From the UHGV virus genome UHGV-0353285: a stretch of 16,819 bases of DNA, one strand, 5' to 3'. The first letter of the stretch is position 1, and every line of letters begins with the position of its first letter. Shown piece by piece: positions 8,527-16,819 of this stretch. Source of the stretch: a virus. The translations under genes and the position numbers were made by a program. Under the pieces are notes generated by a model. The model was not told where the DNA came from, did not search any database, and was given only the letters and a program-made list of their open reading frames with translations.

Positions 8527-9155
8527 CAATGACGAGCCAGAGTGTACTGCCTCCTAACGCAGTAACACCAGAAAGAGCGCTGGAAGCCGTTTTATCTCAT
8601 GTCGGCGATTTGCCTGGTGATATACGAATTATTAAAAATCCCGACCTGTGTCCCGCAAATTTGCTCCCATGGCTAGCGTGGGAATACGCGGTTACGTACT
8701 GGAATCCGGACTGGAGTGAGCGACAAAAACGCGAAATTATCAAAGCAGCCGCGTGGCAAAACAAACACCGCGGCACCCGTGGAGCTGTTGAACGCGCGTT
8801 ATTAACTGTCGGATTTAATAGCAAAATGCGCGAGTGGTTTGAAGCCACACCCAGGGACGACCCGTATACATTCGCAATTAAAATATATCTGCTAAAAAGT
8901 ATGGGGTTAGATTTAGAGCTATTGAATACATTTATTGCACAAATATTTGATGCAAAAAATTGTCGTTCATTATTAAAAGAAATAAATTTCGAAACTGGTG
9001 TTGATGGTGAGTTTTTTATAGCTGGTACACCTTACGCGAAAATAGGCGTAAATATACCGGCAGATGGTGATGGCGGCGTGAAATTAAATGGCGGATTATA
9101 TATATCAGGCTCACCAATTGTTAGTTTAAATGTGGAGATAGGGCCAAATGGCTGA
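8523..9155 (+). CDS. Baseplate/tail protein I (P2 gpI-like)
   Basis: 210-aa ORF with conserved N-terminal block (LLPWLAWEY.V..W...WSE..KR..I). Start is GTG at 8523 (overlapping the J stop) or ATG at 8529. The C-terminal third is markedly AT-rich. Confidence 0.82.
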   Translation: MTMTSQSVLPPNAVTPERALEAVLSHVGDLPGDIRIIKNPDLCPANLLPWLAWEYAVTYWNPDWSERQKREIIKAAAWQNKHRGTRGAVERALLTVGFNSKMREWFEATPRDDPYTFAIKIYLLKSMGLDLELLNTFIAQIFDAKNCRSLLKEINFETGVDGEFFIAGTPYAKIGVNIPADGDGGVKLNGGLYISGSPIVSLNVEIGPNG

Positions 9156-10065
9156 AAATAAAATTTACGCAGTACTGACAGACCGCGGCGCACAACTCGA
9201 AGCCGCTGCGCTGGCGTCAGGCGTGCCGGTGGTGCTGAACAAATTTGTTATCGGTGACGCGAACGGAAACGACGACGTAACACCGGATCCGGCGCGTACT
9301 GCATTAATTCACGAGACGTATCGCGGGGATATTAAATCGTCAGAAAATAGTGGTAACCAGGTTATCTTTACACTATACGTACCACCGGAAACCGGCGGCT
9401 ATACTATCCGTGAGGTGGGAATATTAACCGATAAAGGCGAACTGTACTCAGTTGCACGTTCACCGGATATTTTAAAACCTACGGACAGCAACGGCGCGCT
9501 GATTTCAATTACGTATAAATACACGCTCGCGGTGTCCAGCACGTCTACTGTTAACGTAGTTATTGATAACAGTAGTGGAATGAGTCAGGCCGATGCTGAT
9601 AAGCGATATTTGCAGATAAGAAAAAATTTATCTGAAATTAAAGACAAAGGCGCGGCGGCGCAAAAAACGGCACGGGAAAATATCGGCGTTAATCTTGATG
9701 ATTATTACACCAAAAAGGACGTAGACAATTTAATTGATGATAGCGATGACCTCGCACCGGTGGTGCCTGCGTTTGCAGCTGTCGGCTCAGTTGTTTATGC
9801 AGGATTTGGATTTAGTAACGAGACTGTTATGCACTATAAACCCGGGGATACTATTGCAGGTTCATTGATTTTTCCTGCGTATATATATAGAAAAAATGCG
9901 CAGTTAATTAGCGACGTTATTATTAGTATAGGATTTTCAGCAGAATCCCTGCCTGGCTTGTGGGCGCTCTCAGGGTATATGCCGTCGAGTTCCGAACCGA
10001 CAGACGGTAATGCCGAAGCTATTTTTACAGCGAGTTTTGCAACAAATTTCATTAGAGTAGCCTAA
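9148..10065 (+). CDS. Tail fibre protein (P2 gpH-like N-terminal baseplate-attachment domain, divergent C-terminus)
   Basis: 305-aa ORF with start overlapping the gpI stop. The N-terminal ~130 aa (KF.IGDANGNDD..PDP..TALIHE.YRG...S......V.FT...PPE.GGYTIREVGI.TDKGELY) resembles the conserved fibre N-terminus. The C-terminal half is AT-rich and unrecognised. Confidence 0.75.
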   Translation: MAENKIYAVLTDRGAQLEAAALASGVPVVLNKFVIGDANGNDDVTPDPARTALIHETYRGDIKSSENSGNQVIFTLYVPPETGGYTIREVGILTDKGELYSVARSPDILKPTDSNGALISITYKYTLAVSSTSTVNVVIDNSSGMSQADADKRYLQIRKNLSEIKDKGAAAQKTARENIGVNLDDYYTKKDVDNLIDDSDDLAPVVPAFAAVGSVVYAGFGFSNETVMHYKPGDTIAGSLIFPAYIYRKNAQLISDVIISIGFSAESLPGLWALSGYMPSSSEPTDGNAEAIFTASFATNFIRVA

Positions 10066-10070
10066 ATAAA

Positions 10071-10304
10071 ATGTTTAAAGATGATGATTTTTCAAATATA
10101 AAATTACCGCGCTATTCTAGCACATCAGGCAATAGTATTGATGTTAAATGTGATATCAGAGGTATCGGTAGTGATATTTTATTTACTGCATCTAAAACCG
10201 ATTCCACATTATATGGAAGGAATTTATACGAGCGAGCTTTGGCCGGTGAATTTGGTGATGTCGCTGAATATGTGGCTCCAATTATAATCGAATCAGGAGA
10301 GTAA
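10071..10304 (+). CDS. Hypothetical small protein (possible tail fibre assembly chaperone or accessory gene)
   Basis: 77-aa AT-rich ORF in the slot where P2-like tails carry the fibre assembly gene. No clear SD and no recognisable family. Confidence 0.3.
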   Translation: MFKDDDFSNIKLPRYSSTSGNSIDVKCDIRGIGSDILFTASKTDSTLYGRNLYERALAGEFGDVAEYVAPIIIESGE

Positions 10305-10309
10305 AAGAA

Positions 10310-10651
10310 ATGAGCACTAATTTTTTACATGGGCCTCGCACGCTCGAATACGACGACGGCACAAAAGAGATCAACACAGTCGATATTTCAGTTATCGGGA
10401 TTGTTGGTACTGCACCGGATGTTGGGCTAGGGGAGAGGGCATCATTAACGTGGGGATCACCGCTGGCAAATAATGTAGTCACCTTTTTCCCGGTCTATTA
10501 TGGGGATTACGGAAATAAATTTGCAGTTGAAATTATTAAGAAGGGTATTTCTGGAATTAAATACGGATATAGCACACTTCCAGACGGAACAATAAAATTA
10601 ACGCTCGGGACCGACAGCACAACAAGCCGGAACGGCTGGCGCAAGACGTAG
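10310..10651 (+). CDS. Small ORF carrying a tail sheath N-terminal motif (sheath 5' fragment or split sheath N-terminal part)
   Basis: 113-aa ORF with strong SD (AGGAGA, 10292-10297). The first ~37 residues (MSTNFLHGPRTLEYDDGTKEINTVDISVIGIVGTAPD) match the conserved N-terminal strand of contractile sheath proteins. The stop TAG (10649-10651) overlaps the GTG of the downstream sheath ORF. Confidence 0.5.
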   Translation: MSTNFLHGPRTLEYDDGTKEINTVDISVIGIVGTAPDVGLGERASLTWGSPLANNVVTFFPVYYGDYGNKFAVEIIKKGISGIKYGYSTLPDGTIKLTLGTDSTTSRNGWRKT

Positions 10652-11802
10652 TGACTCACGGTGAAGGGCGAACCGCTGAGGATTGTATTTGTGTAGGCAT
10701 TGACGAGGACAGTAAAAATGACGGAATTGTTTATCAGATGCCCGTCACGAGCCTGACGGGCGGTTCTGACGCTCCATTTCCAGTCAACATACCCACACTA
10801 ATTGCAGGTAGTCAGAAAAAAGCGGCGCTCCTGGGTGCAGCAGGCACTCTCCCCGCAGCCATCACTGATATTTTAAATCAGACAGATGCGCTAATTGTTG
10901 TTGTTCGCGTAGACGAAAACACAGACGCGACAAAAGAGCGTGAGAACGTAATCAACGGAATTAACGTTTTGTTAACATCGGGACAAATAAACCAGGTGAC
11001 TCCACGAATTTTGATTGCACCTGATTACAGCGCTAATGACGACGTCGCTGCCGCGCTGGAGGTAGTCACAAATAAATTACGTGGAGTCGGCTATATTGAT
11101 TCTCCACGCACGGCATCGCCCGCAGACGTCGTTAACCGCCGCCATAAATATAGCGCGCGCATGGAAATACTACGCCCGCGTGTGTTTTCCACGGGCGATC
11201 TCAGTGATCTGTCGCGTCCATATTCAGCTATCGCCGCTGGTTTACGAGCCAGAATTGACAACGAAAAAGGGTTTTGGTGGAGCAAATCTAATCAAAATAT
11301 TTATGGAATAACAGGGCTTGAGCAGGTTGATGATTTCATTATTGGCGAGACAAACTGCACGGCGAACCTGCTGAACGCTAGTCAGGTAAGCACCATCATT
11401 CGCTATGATGGATTCCGACATTGGGGTAACTATCTGTGCAGCCTGGATCCGCAGTGGTCGTTTGAATGCGTTCGTCGGACAGCTGACGTAATTGAAGATT
11501 CTATAGCCCGGGCAATGATGACAGATTTTATTGATCGCCCGATAGACCTGCATCTCGGAACAGACGTTGTCGAGTCGATAAACGCATATCTGCACAAATT
11601 AGAGGAGCAGGGTGCGATTAACGGAGGGCGTGCGTGGTTAGACGGTGAGTTGAATACAAAAGAAAGTCTGGCCGCTGGTAATCTTTATATTAATGTTGAT
11701 TTTGGTCCGAAATCTCCGGCACAAACAATTACGTTAATGTACCGCATTAATAATGACTATACAGTTGAAGCGCTGGCCTCCCTTTTTAAAGAAACAGCCT
11801 GA
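10651..11802 (+). CDS. Tail sheath protein (P2 FI-like)
   Basis: 383-aa ORF with sheath-like blocks throughout (FPVNIPTLI.GSQKKAA, ALIVVVRVDE, PRILIAPDYS, LRARID.EKGFWWS.SNQ.I.GITG, C.ANLLNA..V.TIIRYDGFR.WGN, LYINVDFGP). GTG start with weak SD; the frame is open upstream only back to 10573. Confidence 0.88.
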   Translation: MTHGEGRTAEDCICVGIDEDSKNDGIVYQMPVTSLTGGSDAPFPVNIPTLIAGSQKKAALLGAAGTLPAAITDILNQTDALIVVVRVDENTDATKERENVINGINVLLTSGQINQVTPRILIAPDYSANDDVAAALEVVTNKLRGVGYIDSPRTASPADVVNRRHKYSARMEILRPRVFSTGDLSDLSRPYSAIAAGLRARIDNEKGFWWSKSNQNIYGITGLEQVDDFIIGETNCTANLLNASQVSTIIRYDGFRHWGNYLCSLDPQWSFECVRRTADVIEDSIARAMMTDFIDRPIDLHLGTDVVESINAYLHKLEEQGAINGGRAWLDGELNTKESLAAGNLYINVDFGPKSPAQTITLMYRINNDYTVEALASLFKETA

Positions 11803-14800: not shown

Positions 14801-14973
14801 TATAAAATCAAGCGCTACCAGAGCACTTAACAAGTATAAAAATAATAAAAAAAACTACGAACATAAATGTAAAACAACCTGATGGTATTTTTTTTGACGC
14901 CGAAATACTAATACCTCTCCGACTACTAAAATTAATTCTCATTATGAAATCCTTTTAATTAATGGGGCCCCAA

Positions 14974-15189: not shown

Positions 15190-16233
15190 ATGAGTGATTA
15201 CGTAAATACTGGCGTGGAAGCATGGAAGCCCAATTTTTATATATCTGCTGATAATGAAAACATCACGGATAAAATAAGAAAAGGTTTGATCAATATCACG
15301 CTCACAGATTATGGCGGTTCGAGTAAACAGACAGACGAATTACGCGTAGCAATCGTTTCTGAAACTCTGAAAATTCCGGCCCGTGGCGTGAAGATCAGTG
15401 TCGGACTCGGTTTCGGTAATCAGATAATTGATAAGGGTATATACATCGTCGACGGTGCGAGCAGTGGCGGTGAACCTCGGGTAGTTGATTTCACAGCAAA
15501 AGCGGCTCCGATGAACGCGTCAAAAGGCTCTCCGACAGTTCAGAGCAAAAAAACTCGCTCCTGGAGCGACGTCACTGTCAGCAATATCGTTGCAACAATA
15601 GCGAGCGATAACGGGCTAAAACCACGTGTATCAAAGCGGTTTGCAGACAATATTATCACGCAACTCGATCAAGTCGGCGAGTCAGATATGCACCTGATGT
15701 CGAGACTAGCAACACGATTCGATGCGGTGAGTAAACCCGCGGGAGGGTACTGGATATTCCTGCCGCGCGGCGCGGGCGAATCTGTTAGCGGAGCGCCGCT
15801 TCAGCACTACACGCTCACGCGTCGTGATAACTCCAGCTGGGGTTATTCACGAAACGGACAAAGTGGCGATAGTGGTAGCGGTGGCGAAAATCCGGAACCG
15901 ACGTATCTGATTAAATATCACGACACAGCAACTGGGCAGATCAAAGAATTGCGGACAGGTAGTGGCGGCGATCCTGTCATTGAATGGCCGGCAGTTGAGC
16001 CGTCGCTCGACGCAGCGAAAGAAGCTGCACCAGGGCTCAAGGGCGGTGCAGCTAAAAAAGAGTTCTCTATGACGTACACGACGCCAGCGACGCTCGATTT
16101 AGTGTCGCTGACAGCAGAATGCAAAGTCACAACTCAAGGATTCGGGACCGAGGAGGACCGGGACTGGACTATCAACACGCTGAGCCTGACGCTTGCTGAA
16201 AACGGCTTTTCGGTTCGACTGTCTCTGGAGTAA
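15190..16233 (+). CDS. Tail protein D (P2 gpD / late control gene D family)
   Basis: 347-aa ORF immediately after X (stop/start TGATGAATG), in the conserved U-X-D arrangement of P2-like and R-pyocin tail clusters. Size and sequence are gpD-like. Confidence 0.82.
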   Translation: MSDYVNTGVEAWKPNFYISADNENITDKIRKGLINITLTDYGGSSKQTDELRVAIVSETLKIPARGVKISVGLGFGNQIIDKGIYIVDGASSGGEPRVVDFTAKAAPMNASKGSPTVQSKKTRSWSDVTVSNIVATIASDNGLKPRVSKRFADNIITQLDQVGESDMHLMSRLATRFDAVSKPAGGYWIFLPRGAGESVSGAPLQHYTLTRRDNSSWGYSRNGQSGDSGSGGENPEPTYLIKYHDTATGQIKELRTGSGGDPVIEWPAVEPSLDAAKEAAPGLKGGAAKKEFSMTYTTPATLDLVSLTAECKVTTQGFGTEEDRDWTINTLSLTLAENGFSVRLSLE

Positions 16234-16399
16234 ATTGGCTCGGCGAGCCGGTGGCGGGTATGAATTTAGTATTAACGACTGTCGACTGCAAACGGCACCT
16301 GCGATATTTTTAGGCGTAAGCCGGAGAACGAAGAGTCTCTGGTGCTGAACGTTGTTATCGTTAGATGCTGACATTTTTTAATATTGGGAGTTTTCAAAC

Positions 16400-16819
16400 A
16401 TGGTCGTTAAAAATGCTCTTGCCTGTGGGATTATGCTTACTCTTGTCGGTTGTGCTACAAAACCTGTCTCAAATGAACAAGCCACTCCTGTTCCTGAAAA
16501 ACAAATTATCAGTACCGTGTTACTCGAAAAACGAGACGGTACGGGAGAGGTGATCATCAAGCGTGACTCGGGGTTCTTTGGAAGCGCGTGCTTTTCCCGT
16601 GTTTATGTTGATGGTAAAGAGGTGGCAGATTTAGGTACAGCTCAGAAAGTCGTTGTATACCCAACGATTGGTGATCATGTCTTCAGCGCGTGGCCTAAAG
16701 GGGTATGTGGCGGTGGTATGAGTGAGCAGGCGGGTAAGGTGACAACAGATCGTACTTTGATGTATCGCATAGGGTATGGATCAAACGGTGAATATGGCAT
16801 TCACCCAACTGCGTTTTAA
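16400..16819 (+). CDS. Putative lipoprotein (signal peptide with lipobox LVGC); phage moron or flanking host gene
   Basis: 139-aa ORF with GGGAG SD 9 nt upstream. The N-terminus (MVVKNALACGIMLTLVGCATKP) is a typical lipoprotein signal peptide with the Cys at the cleavage site. TAA stop at the window end. Confidence 0.6.
   Translation: MVVKNALACGIMLTLVGCATKPVSNEQATPVPEKQIISTVLLEKRDGTGEVIIKRDSGFFGSACFSRVYVDGKEVADLGTAQKVVVYPTIGDHVFSAWPKGVCGGGMSEQAGKVTTDRTLMYRIGYGSNGEYGIHPTAF

Follow-up and report, generated by a model that had tools for sequence, protein, structure and literature searches.

We analysed the 3' end of the UHGV virus genome UHGV-0353285, a stretch of 16,819 nucleotides (nt) hereafter referred to as the window, where a small lipoprotein gene follows the last structural gene of a P2-like tail module. 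The latter gene, located on the plus strand at positions 15190-16233 with its TAA stop codon at 16231-16233, encodes a gpD-like tail or late control protein. Although its product matches Pfam PF05954 only weakly (E=2.7e-4, below the cut-off), the gpD label is acceptable, since the corresponding open reading frame (ORF) in near-identical prophages is named 'late control protein' or 'VgrG/Pvc8 family' in RefSeq. It is followed by a non-coding spacer of 166 bp (16234-16399) and, on the same strand, by the ORF under study (16400-16819), which encodes a 139-residue lipoprotein precursor of the phrog_890 family. A Shine-Dalgarno sequence, GGGAG (16386-16390), lies 9 nt upstream of the ATG; the predicted signal peptide (residues 1-17) and the lipobox LVGC are encoded by positions 16400-16453 (lipobox at 16442-16453), and the last base of the window is the last base of the TAA stop codon of the ORF. 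In all these respects, namely the end of gpD at 16233, the gap of exactly 166 bp, the signal peptide with its LVGC lipobox and the window ending at the stop of the lipoprotein gene, our reading agrees with a preliminary description of this DNA.

The precursor begins with MVVKNALACGIMLTLVGC followed by ATKP, with K4 in a basic n-region, a hydrophobic core and the lipobox L15-V16-G17-C18, which fits the lipoprotein pattern [LVI][ASTVI][GAS]C. The residues G17-C18-A19-T20 are conserved at 90% or more in an alignment of 37 homologues. An aspartate at position +2 relative to the lipidated cysteine retains a lipoprotein in the inner membrane; otherwise, the protein is sorted by the Lol system to the outer membrane. 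Here, Ala19 and Thr20 occupy +2 and +3 and no inner-membrane retention signal is present; since the +2 residue is alanine and not aspartate, we infer that the protein is sorted to the outer membrane. The mature protein, predicted to start at lipidated Cys18, would comprise about 122 residues (about 13 kDa). Invariant among the aligned homologues are K54-R55-D56, G58, G61-S62, C64, A76, G105 and R123, and near-invariant are C103-G104-G105-G106-M107, G125-Y126-G127, N129-G130 and the C-terminal P-T-A-F; C64 and C103 are likely to form a disulfide bond in the periplasm. The ORF is a maintained gene under purifying selection, because the ratio of non-synonymous to synonymous polymorphism (pN/pS) against the EC28 allele is 0.077 (12 synonymous and 3 non-synonymous changes), a value similar to that of gpD (0.045).

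The AlphaFold2 (AF2) model of the protein is confident, with a pLDDT (predicted local distance difference test) score of 88.6, and all-beta. In it, a low-confidence N-terminal segment covering the signal and lipid anchor precedes a stretch of about 30 residues that is modelled with confidence but has few regular secondary-structure elements; the remainder forms a beta-sandwich of eight strands. Structure searches with this model returned only generic transthyretin-like and immunoglobulin-like sandwiches, and a profile search of PDB sequences found no solved structure related by sequence. For instance, the transthyretin-like TssJ of the type VI secretion system (T6SS) is likewise an outer-membrane lipoprotein of similar size, but dozens of unrelated beta-sandwiches score in the same range, the identity is 12-13%, and there is no T6SS context at this locus. 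The modelled structure, a generic beta-sandwich, assigns no function to the protein.

By its profile match the protein belongs to PHROG 890 ('lipoprotein'; E=7e-52, 175.6 bits), residues 4-139 aligning with positions 2-136 of the 136 in the profile, that is, in full length. The members HK639 gp16 (68% identity to the window protein), H20_0031 of Vibrio phage H20 (45%), mEp390 gp17 (28%), SSU5 gp122 and the putative lipoprotein of pMT1 (24% each) share its size, lipobox, cysteine pair and PTAF motif, but the slot of the window gene, after a contractile-tail gpD and next to attR, differs from theirs. Searches of Pfam and NCBIfam gave no meaningful match, and we regard a hit to XopV at E=0.084 as noise. 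DUF2846 (PF11008) resembles our protein in being a small, beta-rich domain of secreted proteins or lipoproteins, but the window protein falls short of its gathering threshold, with no match at E-values up to 10; weak matches are seen in 9 of the 37 homologues (best E=1.2e-6), and one database homologue has a precomputed DUF2846 domain. Membership in DUF2846 would in any case say nothing about mechanism, because that family is itself without known function. Bd1399, the one structure annotated as DUF2846 in the papers found, has been re-assigned to DUF4360 by its authors. Homology and structure searches had both been suggested in the preliminary description; the former placed the protein in the phrog_890 lipoprotein family, whereas the latter led to generic beta-sandwiches only. 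As this family is already catalogued, under the name 'lipoprotein', in several phage genomes, what is new here is a member in the slot after gpD beside attR.

The family is widespread. A large protein database contains 84 homologues, mostly of 136-139 residues, from hosts that include Escherichia, Salmonella, Citrobacter, Klebsiella, Enterobacter, Yersinia and Xenorhabdus, and a profile search of 1.84 billion representative sequences returned 1443 clusters (at 50% identity) with E-values of 1e-3 or better, nearly all of which are single-domain proteins of about 135-145 residues. Using tblastn, we found homologues in 63 phage records and in 632 plasmids; most of the plasmids are non-mobilisable replicons with the size of phage-plasmids (47-56 kb or 100-115 kb), and Y. 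pestis pMT1 is among the carriers. Members also occur in phages of environmental Vibrio, Pseudomonas and Xenorhabdus, and in wastewater metagenomes.

The last 720 bases of the window have matches in 435 of the 5426 complete Escherichia coli genomes, on chromosomes only, and the lipoprotein gene itself was found in about 436 genomes, essentially always together with the same gpD. The closest genome is that of strain TUM13936 (99.3%), and most others belong to sequence type 131 (ST131), at about 96.5%; hundreds of ST131 and other extraintestinal pathogenic E. coli (ExPEC) genomes carry the prophage. In EC28, the left host flank consists of uvrC, pgsA and the genes for tRNA-Gly, tRNA-Cys and tRNA-Leu. 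The prophage then begins with the integrase and lambdoid early region; the lysis genes are followed by head genes of the lambda type, by a contractile-tail module like that of P2, by gpD and finally by the lipoprotein gene, after which the host genes yecA and tyrP resume. The element is located between tRNA-Leu (leuZ) and yecA in complete genomes, and both its ends carry a 125-bp direct repeat with one mismatch, which runs from the anticodon loop of tRNA-Leu(UAA) through the tRNA terminator. An intact tRNA is found only in the left copy, next to the integrase at attL, while attR is the 3' tRNA-Leu copy with the terminator; the stop codon of the lipoprotein gene lies 221 nt before attR in both EC28 and TUM13936. 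The element is a temperate prophage, integrated at leuZ and common in ST131, whose head resembles that of lambda and whose contractile tail resembles that of P2, with an early region of the lambdoid type. A composite query for the empty site (glyW-cysT-leuZ joined to yecA) was contiguous, and without the gene, in 3793 of the 5426 genomes. Since the lipoprotein gene lies between the att repeats and is missing from the empty sites, it is prophage cargo, the last gene before attR, and not a core host gene. One might suppose the gene to be chromosomal and the prophage to end before it, given that the window ends at this gene and that yecA is only about 470 bp downstream in complete genomes; however, the att repeats and the empty-site count refute this reading, copies on chromosomes are found only together with this prophage, homologues lie in phage tail operons, and we give it practically no chance.

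The preliminary description had weighed a moron against the point where the prophage gives way to the host chromosome, and had named att-site repeats and an empty site in related strains as what to look for, and a core chromosomal gene in prophage-free strains as the finding that would speak against it. Both the repeats and the empty sites were found, and strains without the prophage lack the gene. The boundary does not fall at the gene itself, but it is nearby, as attR is only 221 nt past the end of the window.

Two further observations concern the records of this prophage. The gene is also carried by the 'phage' records vB_EcoM-569R10, -720R5 and -705R4, at the same coordinates in the first two; we considered vB_EcoM-705R4 as evidence for a virion and rejected it, since the record includes yecA and is thus a predicted prophage segment. 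In TUM13936, a second, partial copy of the same late region (L001 30044-40720) lies about 9 kb downstream, where it interrupts araH, with several frameshifted genes; either the prophage is duplicated or in tandem there, or the assembly is at fault.

In other phages, the homologues occupy at least five different slots in unrelated genomes, three of them in siphovirus tail operons (percentages are identities to the window protein). In HK639 and in Enterobacter (68% each), the gene separates the tape measure gene from gpM; Salmonella (75%) and Yersinia (61%) have it between the tape measure gene and the genes for the G/T chaperones; and in Klebsiella (65%), Citrobacter (75%), mEp390 (28%) and Pseudomonas siphophages (28%) it lies between gpK and gpI. 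In Vibrio phage H20 it is found 15 nt downstream of cI on the same strand, and this cI, which has both an HTH_3 and a Peptidase_S24 domain, is a genuine repressor of its type; genes that are expressed in lysogens classically take a position behind cI. The SSU5 copy belongs to an accessory region, beside an FljA-like gene. Distant homologues are found in other mobile contexts, one of them beside a resolvase and a type I restriction-modification system. The slot after gpD beside attR was not seen among the other family members examined. The nucleotide similarity between the E. coli gene and its homologues starts within the signal-peptide region and ends at the stop codon. Moreover, in relatives on the yodB side, which have the same tail module beside a partial tRNA, gpD is followed by a gene for a 335-residue 'prophage tail fibre N-terminal' protein (PF08400; L016 3900-5134 and L017 4780-5790) and then by a 3' remnant of the lipoprotein gene of about 100 nt. 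Since these relatives keep the tail module with only a remnant of the gene, the lipoprotein is dispensable for the virion. Judged by gene order, the gene behaves as a moron in the sense of Juhala and Hendrix, because a single gene is found in non-homologous slots between conserved genes and is present or absent among relatives, which is what defines morons. A separate observation was made in a Salmonella prophage, where an ORF of 173 residues with a hydrophobic N-terminus and no family match (L012 6436-6957) starts 18 nt after the lipoprotein homologue; the two may form a two-gene cargo unit.

The spacer between gpD and the lipoprotein gene contains a palindrome, GGCTCG-G-CGAGCC, which the preliminary description had taken for a hairpin and placed at about 16227-16240, some 10 nt away from its actual position on the plus strand at 16237-16249. 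Its predicted fold of -10.5 kcal/mol hardly differs from the mean of shuffled sequences (-9.8 kcal/mol; z = -0.29, with 68 of 200 shuffles equal or better), and no U-tract follows it; on these two grounds it is not credible as a terminator or any other feature. Of that description's two interpretations, the moron is favoured by the att repeats, the empty site, the phrog_890 match and the variable slots; the hairpin carries no weight. In the ST131 variant of the same prophage, 1-nt indels interrupt the small ORFs overlapping the spacer, so that these are not conserved as coding sequences. A search of Rfam with the spacer, the gene and the downstream region up to attR returned no match, only sub-threshold noise 3' of the gene.

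A candidate promoter of the gene's own is an extended -10-like element, TGtTATCGT (TGTTATCGT), at 16353-16361 on the plus strand, with a predicted transcription start site at about 16368-16370. This element aligns with TGTTAGGAT (HK639 and Enterobacter) and TGTTACCAT (Citrobacter), which lie upstream of homologues in other slots. The pattern TGnTAnnnT was present within 50 nt of the start codon in five of nine independent contexts, compared with 2.8% of background windows (binomial P of about 2e-6); the enrichment is only suggestive, because the pattern was chosen after inspection of the data and the figure is post hoc. On the other side of the gene, a canonical intrinsic terminator directly follows the homologue in 7 of 10 contexts. 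In near-identical E. coli genomes, a hairpin of -16.4 kcal/mol (z = -4.5, with none of 200 shuffles as good) is predicted just past the end of the window, with a poor U-tail (CUUUACCU); the yodB-side relatives keep it beside their remnant of the gene, where a compensatory change has turned a G-C pair into A-T. Two sigma-70-like matches on the plus strand are located further downstream, between the lipoprotein gene and attR (L001 20838-20903, 117-183 nt past the window end): TTCACA-16-GATAAT (10/12) and ATGAGA-17-TATGAT (9/12). They point outward to yecA, and their number is not above the expectation from shuffling. We also considered the LF82 transcriptome as a source of expression data, and rejected it, since the SSU5-like phage-plasmid Cyrano has different genes in the corresponding slot, as judged by gene order and size.

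The protein probably modifies the cell envelope of the lysogen, and the best analogy for it is with small lipoproteins by which phages alter the envelope of their host. Structural work has established how Llp and Rtp45 act: both are small lipoproteins of the outer membrane, contain a disulfide and bind their receptor from within the periplasm. Such superinfection-exclusion factors are also described as preventing adsorption to cell fragments after lysis (bioRxiv 10.1101/2025.07.07.663478). Like T5 Llp and the Cor proteins of phi80, N15 and HK022 (all of which target FhuA), and like Rtp45 (LptDE), the window protein is phage-encoded, anchored through a lipobox and predicted to face the periplasm; it also shares with them conserved cysteines suggesting a disulfide bond, dispensability and a position beside tail or host-range genes. 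We therefore tentatively favour, by analogy, an envelope-acting role in superinfection exclusion or receptor masking, similar to that of Llp, Cor and Rtp45 though unrelated to them in sequence and fold, as a possibility that falls somewhat short of being probable. In this model, lipidation at Cys18 would be followed by Lol sorting to the inner leaflet of the outer membrane, where a flexible linker of about 30 residues would hold the beta-sandwich, stabilised by the C64-C103 disulfide, in the periplasm. The domain would bind a conserved envelope component through a surface formed by the invariant KRD, GGGM, R123 and YGxNG residues. In a lysogen the gene would be transcribed from its weak extended -10 promoter, and during lytic growth also by read-through of the late operon, which is expected since nothing terminates transcription after gpD. 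Because of the altered envelope, incoming phages, or progeny meeting cell debris, would fail at adsorption or DNA entry.

The comparison also has its limits. In contrast to the likenesses above, no sequence or profile similarity to Cor, Llp or Rtp45 was found in searches of Pfam, PHROGs, PADLOC and PDB sequences; the mature window protein, at about 13 kDa, would be a full beta-sandwich domain, whereas those proteins are of about 6-8 kDa; and the window family rides on phages with unrelated receptor-binding proteins. Another parallel is the moron gp15 of HK97, whose slot, flanked by the genes for the tail chaperones and the tape measure protein (PMC3594210), is the one in which the homologues of Salmonella and Yersinia are found. 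Like the lipoprotein, gp15 is a small envelope protein that the virion does not need; however, it is an inner-membrane superinfection-exclusion protein and not a lipoprotein, and there is no homology.

Several results weigh against an exclusion role. The PADLOC defence models gave no match, and neither did the Cor, Llp and Bor families in Pfam or PHROGs. We found no functional study and no link to a phenotype for phrog_890 lipoproteins in the literature. The GC content of the gene (about 0.44-0.47), compared with 0.54-0.57 in the 3' part of gpD and 0.37-0.57 across the tail module, does not make it clearly foreign at 0.46. A simple scan of the spacer found no consensus sigma-70 promoter, and no terminator either. 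The case for a promoter of its own is weak, since the window's TATCGT matches the -10 consensus at four of six positions and has no good -35 element; because of these weak signals, expression of the gene may be mainly late and lytic. Finally, lipoproteins of 65-75% identity occur in phages with entirely different receptor-binding proteins and hosts, which disfavours masking of the phage's own receptor and favours a conserved target. In a stronger form of the exclusion reading, phrog_890 would constitute a new and widespread class of disulfide-stabilised outer-membrane beta-sandwiches that bind a conserved target and block adsorption or DNA entry of many phages. Such a target would explain both the near-identical copies across unrelated tails and hosts and the copy fixed in the ST131 prophage, but we consider this broader claim doubtful.

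The weak promoter signals also bear on a role in the lytic cycle, in which the gene would be a passenger of the late tail operon, and its product would mask receptors on debris or aid tail or envelope events at lysis. Most homologues are embedded in tail operons, on the same strand and with short gaps, and in the window there is neither a terminator between gpD and the lipoprotein gene nor a consensus promoter detected by the scan; the blocking of adsorption to lysis fragments ascribed to such exclusion factors fits as well. However, the H20 homologue lies in the immunity region after cI and that of SSU5 in an accessory region, neither of which is a late operon; the loss of the gene from relatives with the same tail module argues that it is dispensable for virion production; and a transcription unit of its own would fit both the terminators after the gene and the enrichment of the extended -10 motif. 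We consider a purely lytic-cycle role unlikely, although lytic-cycle and exclusion roles are not mutually exclusive.

The abundance of the prophage in hundreds of ST131 and ExPEC genomes suggests a different possibility, namely that the gene is a moron serving host fitness or virulence, as Bor does, through serum resistance, envelope robustness or colonisation. This would explain its retention in ST131, host-benefit morons are well known (PMC3594210; PMC9928086), and the lipoprotein ORF is intact and under purifying selection while the portal gene of EC28 and the sheath gene of the window are damaged. Like Bor/Iss of lambda, its product would be an outer-membrane lipoprotein encoded by a prophage moron. 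However, the intactness of the ORF is not special, since purifying selection on gpD is equally strong; the family extends beyond pathogens to the environmental and wastewater sources mentioned above; and neither Bor/Iss nor any virulence family was matched in searches of Pfam, PHROGs and NCBIfam. Lambda Bor, which confers serum resistance, is encoded near the lysis genes. We see only a small chance that such a host benefit is the function of the gene.

That the protein is a spanin displaced from the lysis cassette, be it an o-spanin or a unimolecular one (u-spanin), is very improbable. Spanin genes belong to the lysis cassette; o-spanins are small, rich in proline and paired with an i-spanin, and u-spanins carry a transmembrane segment at the C-terminus. 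The predicted nature of our protein as a phage-encoded outer-membrane lipoprotein and weak PHROG matches to Rz-like spanins (E=0.05 and 0.13) point that way, but the matches are confined to residues 2-33, which make up the signal peptide with its lipobox. With twice the length of a typical o-spanin, the protein is a folded beta-sandwich in the AF2 model and ends in GIHPTAF with no C-terminal transmembrane segment, and its gene lies about 20 kb from the lysis genes, where the lysis cassette has a lipoprotein of its own; we therefore rejected membership among the spanins.

Some other features of the prophage were noted in passing. The lipoprotein of the lysis cassette, a 64-residue protein beginning with MKKLLLAVAFFTLAGC and encoded directly after the endolysin (L002 25544-25738), is annotated as hypothetical and is a candidate spanin-type lysis lipoprotein. 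The tail sheath gene of the window (10310-11802) lacks one nucleotide near 10626 in comparison with TUM13936 and therefore reads as two ORFs (10310-10651 and 10651-11802), which reflects either a sequencing error or a defective prophage; the portal gene of EC28 has an internal stop codon. Between gpU and gpX there is an AT-rich gap of 160 bp (14801-14961), whose sole ORF encodes 44 residues on the minus strand (14808-14942). Related prophages carry in this place, on the minus strand, a gene for an 85-residue PF14373 'superinfection immunity' protein (T4 Imm-like), to which the 44-residue ORF was found to be unrelated; at this gap, the tail module has a second slot for variable cargo. In the tail-fibre region (9148-10304), positions 9652-10297 have no match in the otherwise near-identical TUM13936 prophage, and an exchange of the kind usual in host-range cassettes appears to have replaced the C-terminus of the tail fibre together with the small ORF downstream of it.

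As it stands, the lipoprotein gene is an ordinary accessory gene, and the main value of the present analysis is a clean prophage boundary and a well-defined candidate. If its proposed role is true, then the family, with at least 1443 clusters at 50% identity, would represent a general device for phage exclusion or envelope remodelling, carried by prophages and phage-plasmids of E. coli ST131, Klebsiella, Salmonella, Yersinia pestis (pMT1), Vibrio and Pseudomonas. It would then bear on phage therapy of these pathogens, and on how prophages shape the phage susceptibility of their lysogens.

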